Below are positions 10,974 to 19,876 of a stretch of DNA of 33,047 bases, piece by piece. The stretch's first letter is position 1. Every line of letters starts with the position of its first letter. Source of the DNA: Pseudomonadota bacterium (GTDB lineage Archaea > Thermoplasmatota > SW-10-69-26 > JACQPN01 > JAJPHT01); contig JAJPHT010000025.1 of NCBI GenBank assembly GCA_021325135.1, positions 1 through 33,047 of the forward strand. The letters run 5' to 3'. The notes under the pieces are model-generated. The model did no database searches and was not told the DNA's origin. It saw nothing but the letters and a program-made list of their open reading frames with translations. The position numbers and the translations under genes are program-made.

Positions 10974-11984
10974 TCAAGGCCGCACCCGAGGGCTCTCCTG
11001 CGGGGCGGGCCCGTCGGGGACGAGGCTGCGCACGGGCTCGCGGCGCGCGCGGAGGCGCTTCGCCATGGCGGCCGCGAGGAGGGAGGCGGTGAGGAAGACG
11101 GCGGCGAGGCCCAGGGCCCACGCCAGGAGGTTCCCCACGTCGAGGGGCACGAGGCCGAGGAACTGCGCCCACGAGACGCCCACGCCGCCCAGGCCCAGGC
11201 CGGTGGCGGTCCACGCCACCGGGCGGCGCTTCTCGATGCGGCCCGCGCGCTTGTCGGCGTCCTGCGCCGCGCTCATGACGCCCGCCACGCCCGAGGTCAC
11301 GTCGAGCCCCGCGCCGGCGAGCTTGGCCAGCTGGCCCAGGCGGCTCGCGCGCTCCTCCTCTTCCTTCTTGTGGCGCTCGCGGGCCTTCCAGAACTCCTTG
11401 AGGTCGCGGAGGATCTGCCAGAGGCCGTAGCCCGTGGCGACGCTGGCCACGGTGACGACGGCGCCCGACGCGGTGAGGAGGGGGTTGCCTTCGACGTGGA
11501 CGTAGAAGTGCTGGCTGTAGAGCGCGGCGCCCTGCGGGTCGCGCACGGCGACGTCCATGAGGAAGAGCCCCGCGCCGATGCTCTTGAACGCGTGCAGGTC
11601 GACGGTGCGGTTGATGAAGACGGTGAAGCCGGGCGGGATGGAGGTGTTCGTCTCCGAGACGCGCGTGAGCGCCGGGGGAGGCGAGCCGCCAGGGCCGGAG
11701 ACGACGAGCCCCACCTCGAAGCTGCGGATCTCCCACGTCGCGTTGGGCGGCGGCGCCACGGCGAGGCTCACGTTGGCCTCCTTCGAGGGGTCGAAGGCGA
11801 TGGCGCCCCGCGGGTCGGACGCCGACGCGACGTCCACTCCGTCGATGGTCACGCGGATGCCGGGCTCCCCGCCCACGGCGAACGAGACGCCGGGAGGGAG
11901 CGCGGGGGGCGTGGCGTTGTCCTGCCCGCGCGCCAGGGGCGCCACGAGGAGGAAGGCCAGCAGCACCAGCGCAGGCAGACGCAC
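10974..11984 (-). CDS. Hypothetical membrane protein (signal peptide, extracellular beta domain, about 3 TM helices)
   Basis: MRLPALVLLAFLLVAPLARG signal; hydrophobic segments LLTASGAVVTVASVATGYGLW and two near the C-terminus. Confidence 0.75.
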   Translation of the reverse strand: MRLPALVLLAFLLVAPLARGQDNATPPALPPGVSFAVGGEPGIRVTIDGVDVASASDPRGAIAFDPSKEANVSLAVAPPPNATWEIRSFEVGLVVSGPGGSPPPALTRVSETNTSIPPGFTVFINRTVDLHAFKSIGAGLFLMDVAVRDPQGAALYSQHFYVHVEGNPLLTASGAVVTVASVATGYGLWQILRDLKEFWKARERHKKEEEERASRLGQLAKLAGAGLDVTSGVAGVMSAAQDADKRAGRIEKRRPVAWTATGLGLGGVGVSWAQFLGLVPLDVGNLLAWALGLAAVFLTASLLAAAMAKRLRARREPVRSLVPDGPAPQESPRVRP

Positions 11985-12080: not shown

Positions 12081-12153
12081 GCCACCTTAGCTCAGTCGGT
12101 AGAGCTCTCGCCTTGTAAGCGAGGGGTCGTGGGTTCGATTCCCACAGGTGGCT
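12081..12153 (+). tRNA. tRNA-Thr(UGU), no intron, CCA not encoded
   Basis: Acceptor GCCACCT/AGGTGGC; D arm AGCTCAGTCGGTAGAGC; anticodon arm CTCGC-CT-TGT-AA-GCGAG; T loop GGTTCGATTCC. Confidence 0.97.
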
Positions 12154-12328
12154 TCAGAAGGGTGCAAGCCGGCCCCGGGACCCATGGCGGGAGGCAAACG
12201 AAGGGAGGCTGACGAGGTGGGGGTCCCGGGGCGGCTGACGGCCCTCCGGGGGCCGGGGCCCTCTTGAAGATTCTCGGGAATGCCTCGAAGCGTGCGGCGC
12301 CCGCCCCCTGCGCCGCTGCCGCATGGCA

Positions 12329-12345
12329 TGGAGGAAATTTGTGAA
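12329..12345. promoter_or_regulatory. TGGAG-N7-GTGAA motif, copy 1 (reverse orientation of TTCAC-N7-CTCCA)
   Basis: tggag gaaattt gtgaa; the same fixed bases occur at 13413, 15263 and 18614. Confidence 0.55.
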
Positions 12346-12498
12346 ATCCGCCCCATGGGCCGCAAGCATGATGTTTCCCTCGTGCATGGCGCCTCGTCCT
12401 CGGACGGGGCATGGATCTTCGATTCCCGTCCGAGACAGCGGGGCCGCCGGGCCAATTCCGTAAGACCTCAGCCCAGACCGGCGGCCCCAGCCTCCTCT

Positions 12499-13095
12499 TC
12501 ACCGTCGCCTGGCGCCGTTCTCCTCGTCGCCCTTCGTGCGGCCGGCCCCCAGCGCGGCCATGAGCGCCCTCAGCTGGGGCGAGGGGCGGAGGTCCACGTG
12601 GCGCGTCTTCGAGCCCGAGAGGATGAGGCCCCCGTCCAGCAGCTGCTTGACGTGGTAGTAGACCACGCGGGGCGACTCCCCGGTCGCCTCCACGATCTGC
12701 TTGATGGTCGTGCGGGGGCAGCGGAGGATGGCGAGGGCCACCTTGCGCGTGGTCTCGTGCTGGAGCGCCGCGAAGGCCGAGGCGTCCCCCTCGGCGGCCG
12801 TCTTCGGGAGGAAGGCCATGCGGTAGGCGCCCACGTAACGCAGGCGGACGAGGCCAAGGGACCTCAATTTCTTCAGGTGGTGGTAGAAGGCTCCCCACCC
12901 GAGGCCGACCTCGCGGCGCAGCTGGCTCACGGAGATGCCGGGGTGCCTGCCCACGGCCTCCAGGATCTGCTGGCGGGCGGGAAAGGCCTCCACCTCGTCC
13001 CGCGTGAGGAAGTGGCGCCCCAGCAGCGGGACCACCGAGGGAGCGAGGGTCCGCACCAGCGGCCAAGCGGTCTGCCAGGAGCCTCCATGCGGCAC
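12499..13095 (-). CDS. Tandem winged-helix (ArsR/HTH_24-like) transcriptional regulator
   Basis: RQQILEAVGRHPGISVSQL...YHHLKKL and a second repeat RKVALAIL..P..TIKQI...YYHVKQL; start uncertain. Confidence 0.85.
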   Translation of the reverse strand: MPHGGSWQTAWPLVRTLAPSVVPLLGRHFLTRDEVEAFPARQQILEAVGRHPGISVSQLRREVGLGWGAFYHHLKKLRSLGLVRLRYVGAYRMAFLPKTAAEGDASAFAALQHETTRKVALAILRCPRTTIKQIVEATGESPRVVYYHVKQLLDGGLILSGSKTRHVDLRPSPQLRALMAALGAGRTKGDEENGARRR

Positions 13096-13156
13096 GTGCC
13101 ATGCCTCCGCACGGGGAGAGACCTAAGGGACCTTGGAGGTTTCCTGAGGATCGGTG

Positions 13157-13360
13157 TTAGGGAGGAACCCGCATGGGGCAGCCATCACCCTCGAACGTCA
13201 CGGGCTGCGTGGGGTCGAAGGGGTGGAGCGAGATGTTGCACCCGTCGTTGATCTGGATCTCCCTGGGGAGTTGCGTCGGCCGCAAGGCGTCTGCGGTGGG
13301 AGGGAGGGCGGCCACGATGCCGGCGATGGTTAGCAGGAGGAGGAGTCTCGTGCGAATCAC
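13157..13360 (-). CDS. Small secreted peptide (67 aa; about 42-aa mature part with two DGC cysteines)
   Basis: MIRTRLLLLLTIAGIVAALPPTADA signal with an AxA site; mature ...NDGC...GDGC.... Confidence 0.6.
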   Translation of the reverse strand: MIRTRLLLLLTIAGIVAALPPTADALRPTQLPREIQINDGCNISLHPFDPTQPVTFEGDGCPMRVPP

Positions 13361-13412
13361 CGGTTATCCTTGGGCCCTTCAATATCCTAAGGAGTCCGGT
13401 TTTTCCCCGGAA

Positions 13413-13429
13413 TTCACGATCCTGCTCCA
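13413..13429. promoter_or_regulatory. TTCAC-N7-CTCCA motif, copy 2, in a divergent promoter region
   Basis: ttcac gatcctg ctcca between the peptide gene and the TPR membrane protein gene. Confidence 0.55.
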
Positions 13430-13501
13430 GTTTTTCGCTGAGAATTTCCGTCATGGGGCGACCCACAAGGCCAAGAATCCGTCCCGCTTTTCCCCCCTCC
13501 G

Positions 13502-14989
13502 ATGAGGGCTTGGCTGCTGGTGGCGCTGCTGGCGCTGGTCGTGGCGCCCTTGGCGGAGGCCGAACCCGCTTCGGGCACGCTCGTCTCGAAGGGCGCCATG
13601 CTGCTGCCCCTGGGCACCCTGGTCGACGCCACCCCCAGCGCCCTCTCCGTCGCCCAGACGGCCGGCCTCGCGCGCCTGCATCTGGTCGCCGCGCGCCTCC
13701 ACGTGGACGAGTGGGAGCAGCCCGTCTCCGAGGTGGCGATCCCCGGCACGCAGTACACCGTGGGCACCGACACCGGGGCGGGCCGGATCGTCGACAGCAA
13801 GGACTTCCTCAACGCCACGGCGGACCTCGTGGACGGGGCCAACAACACGGGCACGCTGGGCGTCTACTTCGACGGGCGGCAGAACCTCACGGCCCTGACC
13901 CAGGGGCCCACGAACGTCTCCTCTGCCCAGGACGAGATCGTCGGGGCCCGATCGCCGGGGGACCAGGGCTATCACCCGGAGAGGCGCACCTACAGCCAGG
14001 ACGTCATCCCGCCCCACCTCTCCTGGCACGTCCAGGGCGTCGTCCAGGTGCGGGGCCCCTGGGTGCTCCAGCTGAGCGGCCCGGACATCGCCATCTCCAG
14101 CCAGGACAAGACGGCGTCCTACCAGACCGGCCTGCTGGACGGCGGGGGCGGGCTGCCCGGCGTCACCTACCAGTGGCTCGTCGTGACCGCCGACCAGGGG
14201 TGGATCGTCATGGAGAGCCCCTCGGACGTGCGGTTCTCCGCCTCCTCCAGCCGAGCGACGTGGAGCGGCACGGCCGAGGCCGACTCCCTCTCGGGCGCCC
14301 TGAAGACGCCGCACGGCGAGCTTCAGCCCTCGGGCGACAGGACCAACCTCACCGGGCAGCTCACCACGGAGCTTGCCCCGGCGGGGGACGCGCAGGGGAA
14401 GCTCATGACGCTCCTGGTGCGGGGCGACCTCCGCTCGTCCACCCTGGCCGCGACTTCCGCGCCCTCCCCCCTCTCCGGCGGCTGGGCCCAGGCGGGCGCG
14501 CTCACCGGGGGCACCATCCTCCTCGTCGCCCTGGCCGTGGGCGGCACCGCCCTCGCGCGGCGCGTCTCGCACCGCCCCCTCACGGTGGACCAATTGCTGG
14601 AGCTGGCGGACCGGGCGGCGGAGGACGGGAACTTCGCGGTGGCGCGGGACTGGACCGCGAAGGCGAAGGCGCGCATGCCAAAGCATCCGCGCGTGCTCAT
14701 CGACCACGGGTTCTTCTGCGCGCAGTGCGGCGAGGTGGAGGAGGCGCTGGAGGCCTACCGCGAGGCGGCGGAGGCGTCGGACTCCGGGGAGCCCGAGTTC
14801 CTGGCGAGCCAGCTGCTCCTGAGGCATTTCGAGCGGGAGGACGAGGCGGCGGCGCTGCTGCTGCGGGCGCTGGAGAAGGCGCCGGAGCTCCTCTTCGAGA
14901 CGGAGGAGATGCCCGAGTTCGTCCGCCTCCGGGGGCGGGAGGACGTGCGGCTGGGGCTGGGCCGGGCGGCCCGAAGGGCGCGACCCTGA
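13502..14989 (+). CDS. Single-pass membrane protein: extracellular beta-rich domain, TM, cytoplasmic TPR-like domain
   Basis: Signal MRAWLLVALLALVVAPLAEA; TM GTILLVALAVGGTALARR; TPR-like helices (GNFAVARDW..KA...P, GEVEEALEAYREA, EAAALLLRALEKAPE). Confidence 0.82.
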   Translation: MRAWLLVALLALVVAPLAEAEPASGTLVSKGAMLLPLGTLVDATPSALSVAQTAGLARLHLVAARLHVDEWEQPVSEVAIPGTQYTVGTDTGAGRIVDSKDFLNATADLVDGANNTGTLGVYFDGRQNLTALTQGPTNVSSAQDEIVGARSPGDQGYHPERRTYSQDVIPPHLSWHVQGVVQVRGPWVLQLSGPDIAISSQDKTASYQTGLLDGGGGLPGVTYQWLVVTADQGWIVMESPSDVRFSASSSRATWSGTAEADSLSGALKTPHGELQPSGDRTNLTGQLTTELAPAGDAQGKLMTLLVRGDLRSSTLAATSAPSPLSGGWAQAGALTGGTILLVALAVGGTALARRVSHRPLTVDQLLELADRAAEDGNFAVARDWTAKAKARMPKHPRVLIDHGFFCAQCGEVEEALEAYREAAEASDSGEPEFLASQLLLRHFEREDEAAALLLRALEKAPELLFETEEMPEFVRLRGREDVRLGLGRAARRARP

Positions 14990-15262
14990 TCAGGAGCGGG
15001 GGTTGCGCTTGGGCGCGTGCGGCCGGGGGGTCCGGTCGCCGGTGGCCTTGAGGCTCCCGGTGAATCCCTCCACGAGCCCGTAGGCCCGCAGCCGGTTGAG
15101 CAGCGGGTGGACGTGGGGCTGCGGGACGCGCGCCATGCGCGCGATGGTCTTGGCGTCCTGGCCGCCGCGTCGCACCGCGTTGAGGACGCGCTCGGTCTGG
15201 GTCAGTGCTGGGCGGCCGGGGCCGCGGGTTCCTCGCCTCGCTCGTGAGCTGGTCACGACCAT
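14990..15262 (-). CDS. Small basic HTH DNA-binding protein (TrmB/wHTH-like), 90 aa
   Basis: GGAGGTG SD and ATG at 15262; TERVLNAVRRG..DAKTIARMARVPQPHVHPLLNRLRAYGLV HTH pattern. Confidence 0.7.
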   Translation of the reverse strand: MVVTSSRARRGTRGPGRPALTQTERVLNAVRRGGQDAKTIARMARVPQPHVHPLLNRLRAYGLVEGFTGSLKATGDRTPRPHAPKRNPRS

Positions 15263-15279
15263 TTCACAACACACCTCCA
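15263..15279. promoter_or_regulatory. TTCAC-N7-CTCCA motif, copy 3, abutting the HTH gene start and overlapping its SD
   Basis: ttcac aacacac ctcca. Confidence 0.5.
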
Positions 15280-15532
15280 ACAAATTTTCTTCGGCTAGTG
15301 CCGGGGCTGGGGAGGAAGGGTTACCGGCCCGAGCGGGAGGCAATCGAGGGAGACGAGGGGGGATGCGGCGGGCCGGAAGGAGCCCCGGACACCCCCGCAT
15401 CCTTCTGCGGGCGTCCGGGACGTGGGGAACGACTCGGGCGCTCGCCCCATAACCGCTCTCAGGCAGACGTCGAACCGTATGCGGCGCGCCAGGACGCAAG
15501 GTGTTTCCGGGAGGGGGCGGGTTCCGGAGCCC

Positions 15533-16990
15533 GTGCGCCGGACGAAGATCCTCGCGACCCTGGGCCCCGCCACCACGCCGGAACCCGCCCTGGAGGCCCT
15601 CCTGAGGGCCGGGGCCGACGCGGTGCGCCTGAACTTCAGCCACGGGAAGGCCTCGGACCACGAGGCCGTGTTCCAGCGGGTCCGCGACGCGGCCGAGCGC
15701 CTGGGCAAGGCGGTCCCCATCGTCCAGGACATCCAGGGCCCCAAGATCAGGATCGGCAGATTGCCGGCGCCGGTGCCCCTTTCGCGGGGGGACGAGGTGC
15801 GCTTCCACGTCGGCGAGGAGCAGAAGGAGCCCGGCGTCCTCCCCATCACCTACGCCCACCTGGCCGAGGACGTGAAGGCGGGGGACCGCATCCTCATGGA
15901 CGACGGCTACCTCTCGGCCCGCGTCGTCGCGGTGGAGGACAAGGAGACCGTCCTCGCCCGCGTGGAGGACGGCGGCCTGCTGAAGTCCAACAAGGGGGTC
16001 AACTTCCCCGGCGTGCGCCTCTCCATCCGCTTCCCCACGGAGAAGGACAAGCTGGACATCCAGGTGGGCCAGCGCCTCGGCGTCGACTACATCGCCGTCT
16101 CCTTCGTGCGCAGCGCGGCGGACCTCGCCCGCGTCCGGGCCGACCTGGACGAGGACGTGGGCACGCGCGTCATCGCCAAGGTGGAGCTTCGCGAGGCCGT
16201 GGACAACCTCGACGAGATCATCCTCGCCTCCGACGGCGTGATGGTGGCCCGCGGCGACCTGGGCGTCGAGCTTCCCCCCGAGGAGGTGCCCCTCGTGCAG
16301 AAGGACATCCTCCTGCGCTGCGACAGGCTTGGCATCGCCAGCATCACCGCGACGCAGATGCTGGAGAGCATGATCGAGAACCCGCGCCCCACCCGCGCGG
16401 AGGTGACCGACGTCTACAACGCGGTGCTCGACGGGACCAGCGCAGTCATGCTCAGCGCGGAGACGGCCGTGGGCAAGCACGCCGTGGAGGCCGTGGCCGT
16501 CATGGGCCGCATCGCGAGCCGCGCCGAGGCGGAGCTGCTCTCGCCCGGCGAGATGGCGCAGCGCCGCCACGCCGTCACGTCGCGCTCCATCCCCGACGTG
16601 GTCGCCCACAGCGCGGCCCGCGGCGCCGAGGAGGCCGGAGCGCGCGCCATCCTCGCCCTCACGCACCGCGGCCTCACCGCCCGCGTGCTATCAAAATACA
16701 AGCCTTCCGTCCCCATCTACGCCGTCACCAGCCTCCCCCGCGCCCGCCGCCAGATGGCCCTACTCTGGGGCGTGACCCCGCTCCTCGCCCCCTTCCACGA
16801 GGACGAATGGGTCGCGTTGGGCGCCGCCCGTGACGCGGTCCTCGGCGAGGGGCTGCTGAAGCCCTCCGACGTGGTCGCGGTGGTCAACTCCCGCGGCGGC
16901 GTCCGCAGCAGCACGAACACGCTGCGCCTGCTGCCGCTCCGGGACCTGGGGCCCCCAAAAGCGGGGGGTTCGGGGGGCGCAGCCCCCTGA
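15533..16990 (+). CDS. pyk: Pyruvate kinase
   Basis: RRTKILATLGPA, RLNFSHG, DIQGPKIR, IAKVE, MVARGDLGVE, ATQMLESM..NPRPTRAE.TDV.NAV.DG, MLSAETA.G. Confidence 0.97.
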   Translation: MRRTKILATLGPATTPEPALEALLRAGADAVRLNFSHGKASDHEAVFQRVRDAAERLGKAVPIVQDIQGPKIRIGRLPAPVPLSRGDEVRFHVGEEQKEPGVLPITYAHLAEDVKAGDRILMDDGYLSARVVAVEDKETVLARVEDGGLLKSNKGVNFPGVRLSIRFPTEKDKLDIQVGQRLGVDYIAVSFVRSAADLARVRADLDEDVGTRVIAKVELREAVDNLDEIILASDGVMVARGDLGVELPPEEVPLVQKDILLRCDRLGIASITATQMLESMIENPRPTRAEVTDVYNAVLDGTSAVMLSAETAVGKHAVEAVAVMGRIASRAEAELLSPGEMAQRRHAVTSRSIPDVVAHSAARGAEEAGARAILALTHRGLTARVLSKYKPSVPIYAVTSLPRARRQMALLWGVTPLLAPFHEDEWVALGAARDAVLGEGLLKPSDVVAVVNSRGGVRSSTNTLRLLPLRDLGPPKAGGSGGAAP

Positions 16991-17059
16991 CGTTTCGGTC
17001 GTCTGCTGGAACGGGACTTCACGTCAGGGGGCTGCGCCCCCCGAACCCCCCGCTTTTGG
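16955..17059. repeat. Perfect 39-bp inverted repeat (27-nt spacer), REP/MITE-like
   Basis: 16955-16993 ccaaaagcggggggttcggggggcgcagccccctgacgt is the exact reverse complement of 17021-17059. Confidence 0.92.
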
Positions 17060-17132
17060 CCGCGCTGCGGCGCGGCCTCGCGACGAGGTCAGTGTGGGAG
17101 CCCTTAAGGAACGCCCGAGGGTGAGGGAAGCC

Positions 17133-18566
17133 GTGCGCCGCGCCGCCCTGCTCCTGGTCCTGCTCCTCGCGGGCCCCCTCCTGGCGGGCTGCGCCGGCAG
17201 CGCGGGCTCCGGGCGTGAGGACCTCGTCCCCTACCCGCGCCTCCACGAGTCCGCGACCTACGCGGTGAAGGGCGCCGCGGTGGACTTCTCGCGCTGGGAG
17301 AACGGCCACGCCTTCGCGACGCCCCAGGCGCAGGTGAAGCTCAGCGTGCTGCCGGGGGGCAACGCGCTGGACGCGGCGCGCATCCCGCACGCGACGTTCC
17401 TCGTGCGCGAGGAGGTGGGCGAAGCGGGCGCCTTCGCGTCCCACGCGGACCTCTACGTGAGCCCCGCCCACGAGGCCGTGGTGCAGTCGTTCTACCCCCT
17501 CTCGGGCGACCAGTCGATCCTCGCCTTCGACGAGCGCGGCTACCCGTGGCTCTTCGGCGCGTCGGCCCTCTTCGGCGAGAGCGTCGCGCCGGGCGCCCGC
17601 ATCCGCGTCGCCATCCCCGACAACCTGGGCCACGGAGCGTCGCTCGACCTCTCGTGGCGCGTCGCCGGCCAGGATGCCATCAACGGGGTCCGCGCCACGC
17701 GCCTGGAGCTGGAGGGCTCGCCCAGCGTGGGCGGCACGCTCTGGATGGAGCCCGGCTCGCCCTGGCCCCTGGCGGCGAACCTCACGCTGCGCGACGCGGG
17801 CGTCGAGCCGCTGCTGCGCGCCGACGGCGGCTACCCCGCGCACCTCGAAGCCCACCGCGTCGCGGTGCAGCGCGGCGACGACCTGCTCCCGCCGCGCAAC
17901 CGCGCCGAGCGCTTTCTCGGCGACGACGCGGTGCAGCGCGACGCGTGGGACGGCACGGCGCCCCCCGATGGCGCGGACGCCTACGAGCCCTACCGGCTGG
18001 GCGAGGCCATCTCCGACGCGAAGCTCCTGGACCCCAACGGCCTGGGCGCGTGGCTGAAGGCCGCGCAGGACCCGCGCCTCTACCGCGCCACGTTCAAGAC
18101 GTTCGACGGCCCCGCGCAGGGCACGATCAACGCGACGTGGCTTCTCGTCTTCGTCGACCAGAAGGAGACGTACTACCAGGTGCAGATGGGCCGCCTGCAA
18201 TCCGCGGCGGCCAGCCTGCCGCCCCTCCCCGTCGCGCCGCCCCAGGGCGTGCCCAAGGTGGAGAGCAGCGGCGCCGCGGAGGCCCCTTCCTCCTCCAACC
18301 ACGGCTGGTTCGCCAAGGACGCGGTGCCCGAGAAGCTCGTGAGCCTCTCGCAAGGCGTCTCCGTCGTGCGCGGCCTCTTCGGCGCCAAGGGCGTGCAGAT
18401 CTTCCTGCGCAGCTTCCAGGACCCGCCCGGCTACCAGTACTTCCTCGACGGGGGCTGGGACTCGGACAAGGGCGAAAAGGGGCGCTACACCGTCGTCTAC
18501 GACCCCGAGACGGGCCTCGTGCAGGAGGCCACGGGGCACGGCGTTGCGCCGAGGATGGCGCCCTAG
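17133..18566 (+). CDS. Hypothetical lipoprotein
   Basis: GTG start; RRAALLLVLLLAGPLLAGC lipobox; C-terminal YTVVYDPETG is weakly PepSY-like. Confidence 0.8.
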   Translation: MRRAALLLVLLLAGPLLAGCAGSAGSGREDLVPYPRLHESATYAVKGAAVDFSRWENGHAFATPQAQVKLSVLPGGNALDAARIPHATFLVREEVGEAGAFASHADLYVSPAHEAVVQSFYPLSGDQSILAFDERGYPWLFGASALFGESVAPGARIRVAIPDNLGHGASLDLSWRVAGQDAINGVRATRLELEGSPSVGGTLWMEPGSPWPLAANLTLRDAGVEPLLRADGGYPAHLEAHRVAVQRGDDLLPPRNRAERFLGDDAVQRDAWDGTAPPDGADAYEPYRLGEAISDAKLLDPNGLGAWLKAAQDPRLYRATFKTFDGPAQGTINATWLLVFVDQKETYYQVQMGRLQSAAASLPPLPVAPPQGVPKVESSGAAEAPSSSNHGWFAKDAVPEKLVSLSQGVSVVRGLFGAKGVQIFLRSFQDPPGYQYFLDGGWDSDKGEKGRYTVVYDPETGLVQEATGHGVAPRMAP

Positions 18567-18613
18567 GCATCGCAGCGCGCGGCGCACCGGGTTACGAAGG
18601 GCCTCTGCCAGAG

Positions 18614-18630
18614 TTCACGAAATTTCTCCA
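18614..18630. promoter_or_regulatory. TTCAC-N7-CTCCA motif, copy 4, just upstream of a TATA-like AAAGTTAT
   Basis: ttcac gaaattt ctcca, then ccaaagttatc; ATG at 18676. Confidence 0.55.
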
Positions 18631-18675
18631 CCAAAGTTATCTCGTCAACGCGCGTGGCGCGGGCCGGTTGTGCGC

Positions 18676-19212
18676 ATGCGCTTCATCGTGCCCTTCAGCC
18701 TGATCGCTGCTTGCCTGTTCCTCCCCGCGGCTGGCGCCACGGGCGTCGATCTCCTCAACGGAGGCATCCACGCGGACATCTTGGCGGCCCCACCGTCTGT
18801 CCTCATCATCGCCACCACCAGCAACCTCGTGCCCGTGGAGACCGTCACCTTCTTCTACTGTCCCGCCGGCGCGCCTCCCACCACGTGCATCTTCTTCGTG
18901 GATGGCCACGTGGACGGCCAGGAAATCGCCCCCGTGCTTCTCTGTGCCCCCGGCACCAGCGGCTCCCAGGCTTGCGAAGCCTACGCCTTCGTCTCGGACC
19001 TGGCGGCGGCCGCGGTGGGCGTCACGCAGAACCCCTTCGGAGCCCCGGGCGTCGCCCTTTGCGGCGGCGTGGGCGTCACGTCGACCGTCGAGGTGGAGTG
19101 CGTCGGCGCCCAAGTGCGCCAGGGGTCGCAGGACTGCGTGGACCTCCTCTACGCCCTTCACCAGGGCTACCCCGCGCTTCAGCAGGTCCCCCTGGCGTGC
19201 GCGACGCCGTAG
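18676..19212 (+). CDS. Small Cys-rich secreted protein (8 Cys in the mature part)
   Basis: Signal MRFIVPFSLIAACLFLPAAGA; hydrophobic, acidic mature region almost free of Lys/Arg. Confidence 0.7.
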   Translation: MRFIVPFSLIAACLFLPAAGATGVDLLNGGIHADILAAPPSVLIIATTSNLVPVETVTFFYCPAGAPPTTCIFFVDGHVDGQEIAPVLLCAPGTSGSQACEAYAFVSDLAAAAVGVTQNPFGAPGVALCGGVGVTSTVEVECVGAQVRQGSQDCVDLLYALHQGYPALQQVPLACATP

Positions 19213-19249: not shown

Positions 19250-19876
19250 CTAGAACGACAGCACCGCCGCCCGCACGAAGGCGTCCAGCACCAGGAGGAG
19301 CCCTCCGCCCGGCGGCGCGCCTGCGTCCTCGGCGGCGGGCCGCGGCTCCAGGGTGAGCCACACCTGCGCGAAGCGGTCCACCACGTCGTCGAGGAAGCTC
19401 TCGCGGTGCTGGATGAGGACGCGCGCGACGAGGTCGGGCTCCAGCACGCGGTAGAGGTTCTCGCGGCCGCTCTTCTCCTGGCCCACGATGCCGCTCGTGA
19501 CGAGCTTCTTGAGGTGGAAGGAGAGCGTGCTGGCGCTCAGCGCGAACTTCGTGAGAAGCTGCCCGTGGCTGCTGCCGGGCTCCAGGAGGAGGTGCGCCGC
19601 GATCTGCCGCGGCACCTTCTGGCGCAGCACCGCCAGCACGTCCTTCTCGCGGCGCGACAGCTCTCCGGTGGCGAAGTAGCGCGTGTAGCGCGGGTCCTGC
19701 CGCGTCGTGAGCAGGTCCGCCTTCACGAGGTAGTGCAGGTGGTACTCCAGCGTCCCCATGGGGATGTCCAGCTCGCGGCCGATCTCGCGCATGTGCGCGC
19801 CGGGGTGTTTCTGGAGGTGCTGGTAGATGCGCCTCCGCGTGTCCAGCTCCAGCGGGTCGTCCGGCGTGGGGCTCAC
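19250..19876 (-). CDS. Tandem winged-helix (ArsR/HTH_24-like) transcriptional regulator
   Basis: LELDTRRRIYQHLQKHPGAHMREI..GTLEYHL and a second HTH STLSFHLKKL...GRENLY. Confidence 0.92.
   Translation of the reverse strand: MSPTPDDPLELDTRRRIYQHLQKHPGAHMREIGRELDIPMGTLEYHLHYLVKADLLTTRQDPRYTRYFATGELSRREKDVLAVLRQKVPRQIAAHLLLEPGSSHGQLLTKFALSASTLSFHLKKLVTSGIVGQEKSGRENLYRVLEPDLVARVLIQHRESFLDDVVDRFAQVWLTLEPRPAAEDAGAPPGGGLLLVLDAFVRAAVLSF

Follow-up and report, generated by a model that had tools for sequence, protein, structure and literature searches.

Archaeal transcription factors can work by position. A site upstream of TATA is where archaeal activators recruit TBP and TFB, a site between TATA and the start is the classic repressor position, and activation from the former combined with repression from the latter by a single factor is well known in archaea. 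In haloarchaea, which carry several TFB paralogues, promoters are also selected through alternative TFB/TBP proteins. In the RRNPP-type signalling of Bacillota, a small secreted peptide acts on a cytoplasmic TPR receptor fused to an HTH, which provides the output. Sugar metabolism is controlled by TrmBL1, a large protein that carries a sugar-sensing domain. In Pyrococcus furiosus, TrmBL1 is established as a single factor that activates or represses depending on position, and its Thermococcales glycolytic motif (TGM) is a palindrome (PMC4706686; TrmB family review, PMC4158304). OxsR of Haloferax volcanii, a single-domain TrmB-like winged-helix (wHTH) protein with a redox-sensitive cysteine, activates via a CG-rich repeat motif located upstream of BRE/TATA (PMC9426492).

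Almost nothing is known about gene regulation in the uncultured soil Thermoplasmatota. The genome analyzed here is that of an archaeon of this group, has a GC content of 72% and encodes a single TBP and three TFBs. The window, that is, the whole stretch of 33,047 nt that was analyzed, contains four exact matches to TTCAC-N7-CTCCA, as the original prediction had reported. The copies and their neighbors are listed by position.

12081–12153, plus strand: tRNA-Thr (TGT), bounding the gap that holds copy 1; its own promoter makes no use of the motif
12329–12345, minus strand: motif copy 1, TTCACAAATTTCCTCCA, exact match, an 'orphan' site
12499–13095, minus strand: tandem-wHTH regulator (HTH_24, HTH_20, HVO_0163-like), neighbor of copies 1 and 2
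13134–13150, minus strand: possible degenerate fifth copy, TCCTCAGGAAACCTCCA, 2 mismatches
13157–13360, minus strand: secreted peptide of 67 aa whose mature part contains 2 Cys, divergent from copy 2
13413–13429, plus strand: motif copy 2, TTCACGATCCTGCTCCA, exact match, in a divergent promoter region
13502–14989, plus strand: signal-peptide and TPR-like protein of 495 aa, target of copy 2
15263–15279, plus strand: motif copy 3, TTCACAACACACCTCCA, exact match, abutting the ATG (15262, minus strand) of a 90-aa wHTH gene
18614–18630, plus strand: motif copy 4, TTCACGAAATTTCTCCA, exact match, upstream of the gene for a Cys-rich secreted protein
18633–18642, plus strand: TATA-like sequence AAAGTTATCT, next after copy 4
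18676–19212, plus strand: Cys-rich secreted protein of 178 aa with 9 Cys, target of copy 4, no Pfam domain
19250–19876, minus strand: another tandem-wHTH regulator (HTH_HVO_0163_N, E = 2e-19), its gene convergent with that of the Cys-rich secreted protein

All four copies are intergenic according to GC3- and codon-based gene calls and a tRNA scan; the gene calls and the signal-peptide test used below are home-made heuristics. Dinucleotide shuffles of the window contained 0.05 matches on average and none of 100 reached four. The AAATTT-containing spacers are present in copies 1 and 4. The proposed C[AG]GA-N prefix does precede copies 1, 2 and 4 but is not conserved genome-wide, where position −4 is G at only 40% of the sites and the rest of the prefix is almost uninformative.

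Copy 2 is located 72 nt ahead of the ATG (13502) of the signal-peptide/TPR-like gene on the plus strand and 52 nt from the GTG (13360, minus strand) of the gene for the 67-aa secreted Cys peptide, with a T-rich run, GTTTTT, directly 3′. After copy 4, a GTG (18670) follows at 39 nt and the ATG (18676) of the Cys-rich secreted protein at 45 nt. Copy 1 lies in the gap that separates the 3′ ends of tRNA-Thr and of the tandem-wHTH gene at 12499–13095 (minus strand). No A/T-rich box adjoins it, and the closest codirectional gene (10974–11984), which encodes a signal-peptide protein, is 344 nt off, past the antisense tRNA. The same tandem-wHTH gene has a possible ATG at 13104, and the degenerate fifth copy precedes it by about 29 nt; this copy is uncertain because matches with 2 mismatches are within chance expectation.

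The motif is not confined to the window. The 3.77-Mb genome contains 35 exact copies, compared with 2 copies of the reversed control, so that the local four-site regulon first envisaged is replaced by a genome-wide element on about 30 contigs; the presence of 4 of the 35 copies within 6.3 kb is an unusual local density. As many as 29 of the 35 are intergenic in a genome of which 12% is intergenic (binomial p = 2e-21), and the motif is thus not equally common in coding DNA. The spacing of 7 is specific, with other spacings yielding 1–3 intergenic matches. With the refined core TTCACA-N6-CTCCA, all 22 perfect matches and 36 of the 45 matches with 1 mismatch are intergenic, which gives 58 intergenic sites at ≤1 mismatch versus 0 for the control. 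In total, the motif is found at only ~60–100 of ~3800 genes. It is asymmetric, pairing TTCACA with TGGAG (the reverse complement of CTCCA), and is not a palindrome; the two halves form at best an imperfect direct repeat, TTnnnCA, with 11-bp spacing, and the center is ~80% A+T at positions 8–10. A dispersed repeat or MITE was considered and rejected, as the flanks of the 35 exact copies are unrelated and information is at background outside positions −1 to +20.

The sites are clearly oriented with respect to genes. Next to the CTCCA half, the neighboring gene runs in the same direction as the motif at 49 of 57 sites and in the convergent direction at 8 (p = 2.7e-8); next to the TTCAC half, 29 genes are divergent and 29 tandem. 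Among the A/T-containing hexamers found upstream of genes, CCACAA, which spans the junction of CTCCA and its A-rich flank, shows the strongest strand bias (26 vs 3). In the 29 signal-peptide targets, the motif-to-start-codon distance peaks at 38–60 nt. The motif therefore shows the positional bias that the original prediction proposed to look for, and an orientation bias as well.

The promoter context is less sharply defined. The A/T-rich stretch 3′ of CTCCA is weak (~60% A+T over 4–5 positions), and a clear A/T-rich 8-mer within 20 nt is found at 21 of 49 sites versus 15 of 49 on the other side, so that a location just upstream of TATA holds true for some sites only. From the start-codon distances and the weak A-rich flank, we infer that the sites are positioned upstream of TATA at the targets. 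A position downstream of TATA is clear at seven promoters of small wHTH genes. No sharp TATA position emerged from A/T profiles or from hexamer strand bias in the regions upstream of 535 SD-led genes, and hexamer enrichment for a general promoter consensus returned generic A/T runs only. The upstream regions of 51 tRNA genes carry a cTTcAAATAGGG-type box instead of the motif, which was absent by eye, and the three exact copies within 1 kb of a tRNA on the same contig (C11:12329, C15:114899 and C33:144934) are all downstream of the tRNA or on the other strand. As no copy was seen in these housekeeping promoters and only ~60–100 genes have the motif, we rejected the possibility that it is the general archaeal core promoter (BRE plus TATA).

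The target genes form a coherent class. An N-terminal hydrophobic, signal-like segment is found in 75% of the targets versus 38% of the genome (odds ratio 5, p = 1.5e-7), the median Cys content is 2.7% in targets versus 0.8% in other such proteins (p = 7e-6), and the majority of the target proteins have no Pfam domain. No homologue of the 178-aa Cys-rich secreted protein was found in five relatives. The regulon also holds a family of signal-peptide/TPR-like proteins and two sedolisin-type proteases. The TPR-like protein encoded at 13502–14989 belongs to a set of seven paralogues; for five of them, a site (≤2 mismatches) is present in the upstream 600 nt. In a four-member paralogue family of targets (C6:6947, C15:114899, C27:42416 and C33:144934), a separate GTTATC box lies 3–44 nt after the motif. 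In the window and at no fewer than two other loci (on C7 and C19), a TPR-like protein is accompanied by a small secreted Cys peptide and by HTH regulators, and the motif is present inside these modules.

Copy 3 differs in its setting, which involves two further features.

14990–15262, minus strand: candidate cognate transcription factor, a winged-helix protein of 90 aa whose N-terminal tail, RGPGRP, is basic
15280–15294, minus strand: BRE/TATA-like box of the small wHTH gene, CCGAAGAAAATTTGT, upstream of copy 3

On the minus strand, copy 3 occupies the gap from the TATA-like box to the ATG of the small wHTH gene, and because it fills this gap it is predicted to be an autoregulatory operator. 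The paralogues have an equivalent box, AAGAA-N-TTTTTTAT. The arrangement BRE-TATA-TGGAG-N6-TGTGAA-(0–14 nt)-start is found at three of four close paralogues in G000, at least three in G002 and one on an independent metagenome contig (L137), the single extra locus from one metagenome scan. The sequence neighboring this arrangement has diverged. Matches to the promoter cassette in viral contigs (51) were rejected as chance, all of them being in AT-rich contigs that lack the protein.

The 90-aa protein has weak Pfam matches below threshold (TrmB, IclR, DUF2250 and MarR/MarR_2) and scores 21.9 bits for TrmB (PF01978) against a gathering cut-off of 25.6. Its AF2 model is a plain three-helix wHTH. 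A sequence search of the PDB gave no match with E < 0.009, and a fold search of the PDB (Foldseek) returned generic wHTH structures, the best matches among transcription factors being of MarR type with E ~0.02. The small wHTH protein belongs to a rare, lineage-specific family and has 14 homologues in the database. Within the order, the canonical family (E < 1e-20) is present in G000, G002, G003 and G007, exactly the genomes with at least three strict sites, and the genomes with only a diverged subtype or no family member have 0–1 strict sites; this match amounts to perhaps two or three events because genomes of kin are not independent. In G007, which has motif-bearing secreted-protein genes, the family is represented only by the zinc-finger subtype, and this counts against the small wHTH as the binder. 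In G002, G003 and G007, the genes of this subtype lack the motif even when 2 mismatches are allowed.

Conservation of the sites themselves extends beyond the genus. G007 belongs to another genus, and its strict sites lie ahead of genes for signal-peptide proteins; its orthologue (34% identity) of a G000 target has kept a perfect site at the promoter, and the G002 orthologue of the same target has kept a variant with 2 mismatches. DNA-level synteny with the window in relatives is limited to the tRNA and to the gene for pyruvate kinase along with the one next to it, and DNA-level conservation of the peptide/TPR/wHTH module was not found in relatives. The pyruvate kinase of the window is bacterial-like, with best matches of 40–48% identity to bacterial enzymes.

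The genome-wide enrichment and orientation support the prediction of a promoter cis-element with protein-binding behavior rather than a chance recurrence, and we are confident that the motif is a promoter-associated protein-binding element of a genome-wide regulon. It would act at the DNA level as a promoter-proximal site defining a regulon of ~60–100 promoters, mostly of genes for exported, cysteine-rich and largely uncharacterised proteins. At these targets, the site would be aimed at the gene and lie just 5′ of a weak A/T-rich TATA-like stretch, with the start 38–60 nt past CTCCA. At the small wHTH genes, it would be inverted and lie exactly between a strong BRE/TATA and a probably leaderless start, the transcription start sites here and at the targets being predicted ones. 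As the site is upstream at the targets and inverted downstream of TATA at the wHTH genes, activation of the exported-protein genes and self-repression by the small wHTH family appear most likely. Our preferred reading, which we consider probable, is therefore that the 17-bp TTCACA-N6(A/T-rich)-CTCCA is an upstream activator site that serves for self-repression downstream of TATA, with the small wHTH family as its most likely binder.

The identity of the binder is a more tentative part of this reading. The genomic linkage and the phyletic match give the small wHTH family a roughly even chance, or slightly less, of being the binder. Among the three local HTH proteins put forward as possible binders, the small one at 14990 is the best candidate found, and the tandem-wHTH proteins at 12499 and 19250 are not favored. 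Several observations count against the preferred reading: copy 1 is without a plausible promoter partner, the start-codon distances have a long tail of up to ~180 nt, and four paralogues acting on one operator would cross-talk. Moreover, small wHTH proteins usually bind as symmetric dimers, and the motif is non-palindromic.

Alternatively, the 17-mer might be a specialised core promoter, with TTCACA as the upstream BRE, the A/T-rich center as a weak TATA and CTCCA as a downstream TFB contact; a single TFB out of the three paralogues would read it, much as an alternative sigma factor does. The single TBP and three TFBs of the genome, the A+T content of the center, the conserved blocks that flank it much as TFB contacts flank TATA, the strong orientation to the gene and the similarity of gaaTTCACA to the gaaTCGTCAAATAGG start of tRNA promoters all speak for this possibility. 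However, about three TFBs are present in all genomes of the family, including those without strict motif copies, which makes the TFB count uninformative for this possibility and mildly adverse to it. At the small wHTH genes, the motif is inverted and 3′ of a separate strong BRE/TATA, with no conserved forward gene, and no target has its start codon at the ~+17 nt expected for a leaderless transcript. The GTTATC box of the four-member paralogue family follows the motif at a variable distance, which fits an upstream site. We thus consider a TFB-specific promoter unlikely.

Still less likely is an operator of the tandem-wHTH (HVO_0163-like) proteins, whose two wHTH domains would read two half-sites one helical turn apart. 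The half-sites are unlike and their centers are ~11.5 bp apart, which would suit a monomer with two domains; copies 1, 2 and 4 have two such genes at their flanks, and 11 of the 58 sites lie within 3 kb of a tandem-wHTH gene versus 4.3 expected (P ~0.005). This association is weak; 4 of the 11 sites are the window's own, and it may reflect co-location in islands of secreted-protein genes. The genome has ~45–48 tandem-wHTH paralogues, including those at 12499 and 19250, and one operator common to so many is improbable; no consistent motif position was seen in their own promoters.

There is little to recommend an RNA-level element in 5′ leaders, in which CUCC would act as an anti-Shine-Dalgarno sequence pairing with GGAG at the ribosome-binding site and so regulate how exported proteins are translated. 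CTCC and GGAG are complementary, and several sites lie 2–4 nt past the stop codon of an upstream codirectional gene, where operon transcription is possible. A recognisable SD is nevertheless found at only 12 of the 29 signal-peptide targets, the inverted site between TATA and start at the wHTH genes would be barely transcribed and on the wrong strand, and TTCACA, the better-conserved half, would have no role. The remaining alternative, in which an SD and GTG start on the opposite strand open micro-ORFs, can be practically dismissed: although TGGAG-N7-GTG has the ideal SD-to-start spacing and two or three of the GTGs share the frame of a divergent signal-peptide gene, the ORFs span 2–1452 codons and encode unrelated peptides sharing only the M-K/N dictated by the motif, the 40-aa ORF at 12341–12463 has ~65% GC3 (our own codon count) versus 84–98% in the called ORFs of the window, the start is always GTG and never ATG, the fixed T before and AA after it are not a start-codon context, and the orientation tracks the gene on the opposite side.

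The preferred reading of an activator site bound by the small wHTH family provides a concrete regulon, consisting of a 17-bp element, ~60 target promoters assigned with high confidence and a few candidate regulators amenable to recombinant production. Because the targets are a coherent class of exported, Cys-rich and mostly domainless proteins, their co-regulation is a first functional handle on the 'dark' secretome, and the class also takes in TPR-like exported proteins and small secreted peptides. A more speculative extension, which we regard as improbable, is that the motif serves as the common cis-code in a network of archaeal peptide signalling, which would make it part of a quorum-sensing-like secretome programme of Thermoplasmatota. 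Modules of a small secreted Cys peptide, an exported TPR-like protein, a tandem-wHTH and a mini wHTH protein would then be joined by one 17-bp element, and tiny AT-hook-like wHTH proteins would switch on ~60–100 Cys-rich exported proteins while throttling themselves. If so, they would represent a new transcription-factor family present in only a handful of genomes.

In combining HTH regulators with a TPR-like protein and a small secreted Cys peptide, the locus bears a resemblance, and no more, to RRNPP-type signalling; the TPR-like proteins here have signal peptides, unlike the cytoplasmic receptors of RRNPP systems, and should for this reason be extracytoplasmic or membrane proteins. As in haloarchaeal TFB/TBP selection, several TFBs are present and a distinct promoter signature marks one functional gene class, whereas the signature here is a 17-bp motif that also occurs inverted 3′ of an independent TATA, and TFB number does not track it. 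The candidate factor resembles OxsR in comprising little beyond one winged-helix domain, a likeness without shown homology; in contrast to OxsR, the 90-aa protein has no cysteine in our reading of its translation, and the regulon is different. Another close parallel is TrmBL1 and the TGM, where one factor, here a candidate, and one motif serve tens of promoters, and the best Pfam match of the small wHTH protein is, below threshold, TrmB. In contrast to the palindromic TGM, the motif is asymmetric, and unlike TrmBL1, the 90-aa protein has no effector domain and its targets are exported Cys-rich proteins. The principle itself is ordinary and already known, and what is new here is the motif, the protein family, the regulon and the target class.

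The original prediction of four exact TTCAC-N7-CTCCA matches, all of them intergenic, was borne out: the matches are present in the window as written, and each lies between genes as called from GC3 and codon statistics together with Pfam and tRNA scans. Dinucleotide-preserving shuffles contained 0.05 matches on average, and no shuffle reached four.

Motif copies and adjacent genes in the window (coordinates, strand, description)
12081-12153, +, tRNA-Thr, flanking the gap that holds copy 1
12329-12345, -, motif copy 1, between tRNA-Thr and the 3′ end of the tandem winged-helix gene
12499-13095, -, tandem winged-helix gene, 3′ end facing copy 1
GTG at 13360, -, 67-aa secreted peptide gene, on one side of copy 2
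13413-13429, +, motif copy 2, in the divergent region between the 67-aa peptide gene and the TPR-like gene
ATG at 13502, +, signal-peptide/TPR-like gene, on the other side of copy 2
15263-15279, +, motif copy 3, touching the ATG (15262, -) of the 90-aa winged-helix gene
18614-18630, +, motif copy 4, 45 nt upstream of the start (ATG at 18676) of the gene for a 178-aa Cys-rich secreted protein

Copy 1 lacks a promoter partner; it could be a distal site, a decaying one or one with another use. The interval from tRNA-Thr to this copy (12154-12328) also holds a G+C-rich hairpin-capable stretch (GGGCCCCGGCCCCCGGAGGGCC...GGGACCC), which matched no Rfam family.

The motif is a real and statistically strong cis-element. 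The genome that holds the window as its contig C11 (G000; 3.77 Mb, 51 contigs, 72% G+C) belongs to an archaeon, since it encodes one TBP and three TFBs. It contains 35 exact copies versus 2 for the reversed control, in which the pattern is read backwards, and 29 of the 35 are intergenic compared with an intergenic share of 12% by gene calls (p = 2e-21). This enrichment is specific to the 7-nt spacing, as spacings of 5, 6, 8 and 9 gave 1-3 intergenic matches. Because position 6 is usually A, the core was refined to TTCACA-N6-CTCCA, which occurs without mismatch at 22 sites, all intergenic (reversed control, 0), and with one mismatch at 45 sites, of which 36 are intergenic (control, 0 of 6); at two mismatches, the intergenic sites numbered 87 versus 48 for the control. 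The total is roughly 100 sites, including 58 high-confidence sites on ~30 contigs. The motif is asymmetric, and an iterated weight matrix, tTTCACA[ag]n[at][at]T[ct]CTCCAaaa, holds no information beyond positions -1 to +20. The C[AG]GA prefix described in the original prediction falls outside the general motif. A dispersed repeat was ruled out because the sequences flanking the copies are unrelated to one another, and a housekeeping promoter is excluded because a different box, of the cTTcAAATAGGG type, serves the tRNA genes.

On its CTCCA side the motif faces a gene of its own direction at 49 sites and one of the opposite direction at 8 (p = 2.7e-8). Neighbours on the TTCAC side are split evenly, 29 divergent and 29 tandem, as expected at random. 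Upstream of 535 well-supported starts, the top strand-biased A/T-containing hexamer is CCACAA (26 versus 3), which bridges CTCCA and the A-rich flank; the A/T-rich flank itself is weak. The distance from CTCCA to the start codon is most often 38-60 nt with a tail to ~180 nt (measured at the 29 targets whose signal peptide is clear). The proteins encoded downstream make up a coherent class. By a crude test applied equally to targets and to all predicted proteins, an N-terminal hydrophobic segment was scored in 75% versus 38% (odds ratio 5, p = 1.5e-7), and among proteins with this segment the median Cys content is 2.7% in targets versus 0.8% (p = 7e-6). No Pfam domain was found in 16 of the 19 targets scanned, the others being two sedolisin-type proteins (Pro-kumamolisin activation domain) and one TPR-like protein. 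Several paralogue families are represented; the TPR-like protein of the window has six paralogues, and a site with ≤2 mismatches lies within 600 nt upstream in 5 of these 7 genes. The motif appears to be a genome-wide promoter signal of a regulon of exported Cys-rich proteins.

In a paralogue subset of targets, a separate GTTATC box lies 3-44 nt beyond the motif, so that motif and TATA box do not adjoin in every case; this variable distance fits an upstream site. [GT]TTAT[CT] follows 16% of motif sites, compared with 3% of generic upstream regions, without a single inverted case, and the box could represent a variant TATA element or an additional regulatory box. The leader regions of the ~260-aa exported-protein paralogues (C6:6947, C15:114899, C27:42416, C33:144934 and C15:63794 of G000; N-termini such as MNGETFMARNLLP...) contain the oriented box, which is located ~46-50 nt upstream of the start codon in three members (C6, C33 and C27).

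The 90-aa protein beside copy 3 (small wHTH; 14990-15262, -) has three close paralogues in the genome (63-65% identity), two distant ones with an N-terminal zinc-finger-like segment, and five or six further paralogues in the congener G002. On the gene's own strand, its promoter consists of a purine-rich AAGAA, a TTTT(TT)AT box, the inverted motif TGGAG-N6-TGTGAA, 0-14 nt and the start codon. The same order is found at G000:C44, G000:C7, three G002 paralogues and L137, a locus on an independent metagenome contig (69% identity); outside these blocks the sequences have diverged. The T-rich box centre lies 22-35 nt from the start codon (23-27 nt in the window copy, G002:C54 and G002:C42b, counted on the alignment), so the mRNAs are probably leaderless, with the motif filling the whole stretch from TATA to the start site. 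The family is rare, with 15 matches among 5.8 billion clustered proteins, and searches found nothing above threshold in Pfam and no match among PDB sequences. AlphaFold predicts a plain winged helix of three helices plus a basic, disordered tail (pLDDT 78), and the closest transcription-factor folds are MarR-type, all matches being weak (Foldseek E ~0.02). The tail contains RGPGRP, which we take to be AT-hook-like.

Other loci of this genome carry related genes. At G000:C7:53405-54376, five tandem genes for 58-74-aa secreted peptides with 6-11 cysteines each immediately precede a motif copy and the small-wHTH paralogue to which it belongs; at a distance of 3-4 kb there are also a TPR-like paralogue, a tandem-wHTH gene and one more small Cys peptide. 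The gene set of the window recurs at G000:C7 and G000:C19. A further small-wHTH paralogue (G000:C7:28857-29504) is fused to an N-terminal extension with three further HTH-like repeats (LSxQEIARRxG...W) and has no motif copy at its start.

Over 15 genomes of the order, the strict core occurs 22 times in G000, 8 times in G007 of another genus, 7 times in G002 and 3 times in G003, and 0-1 times in the remainder, including the congeners G001 and G004. Strong members of the small-wHTH family (E < 1e-20) are found in exactly G000, G002, G003 and G007; in G001, G004 and G006 the family is represented solely by a diverged subtype whose recognition helix differs, and the profile gave nothing better than E = 8.8e-6 in the other genomes of the order. 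Few independent events lie behind this phyletic match. The short subtype is absent from G007, and no motif accompanies the zinc-finger genes of G002, G003 and G007. The G007 sites are likewise upstream of signal-peptide proteins. For the G000 target at C6:103910, the orthologue in G007 (34% identity) has retained a perfect site, 99 nt ahead of the protein match, and that in G002 (50% identity) has retained the variant TTCACAGGAATCATCTA. Two copies of this ATCTA variant are present at G000:C19, one preceding a TPR-like paralogue and the other a zinc-finger family member.

Between 12000 and 19300 of the window, the only protein genes conserved at the DNA level in congeners are the bacterial-like pyruvate kinase gene (15422-16990) and the next gene (17133-18566). 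Among 185,579 species genomes, the kinase is best matched by enzymes of Nitrospirota, Acidobacteriota and Actinomycetota (40-48% identity), which suggests an old horizontal acquisition. An inverted repeat at the 3′ end of the kinase gene (16961-17087) is a dispersed REP/MITE-like element of the genus, as it has at least a dozen scattered matches in G002 (72-97% identity) on both strands.

The most probable reader of the motif is predicted to be encoded in the window, and the small wHTH is the candidate. A dedicated core promoter read by one of the three TFBs is possible and would suit the A/T-rich centre of the motif, but genomes that lack the motif have just as many TFBs, and it would leave unexplained why the motif is inverted at the wHTH genes. 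The original prediction of a binding site for a local wHTH is kept for the small wHTH and not for the tandem-wHTH proteins, whose family is greatly expanded (~45-48 paralogues in 3.77 Mb) and weakly associated with the sites. An anti-SD RNA element cannot account for the wHTH genes or for the many targets that lack an SD, and the alternative of micro-ORFs was rejected.

At the genes of the small wHTH itself the site lies between the TATA-like box and the start codon, the position where archaeal repressors block polymerase recruitment, and at the target genes it would lie where activators bind. The novelty lies in the motif, the protein family and the regulon; the system itself would be of the ordinary archaeal factor-and-operator kind. 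The same dual position-dependent logic of activation and repression is documented for TrmBL1 (PMC4706686), and the single-domain wHTH factor OxsR activates from upstream of BRE/TATA (PMC9426492), as proposed for the target genes of the motif.
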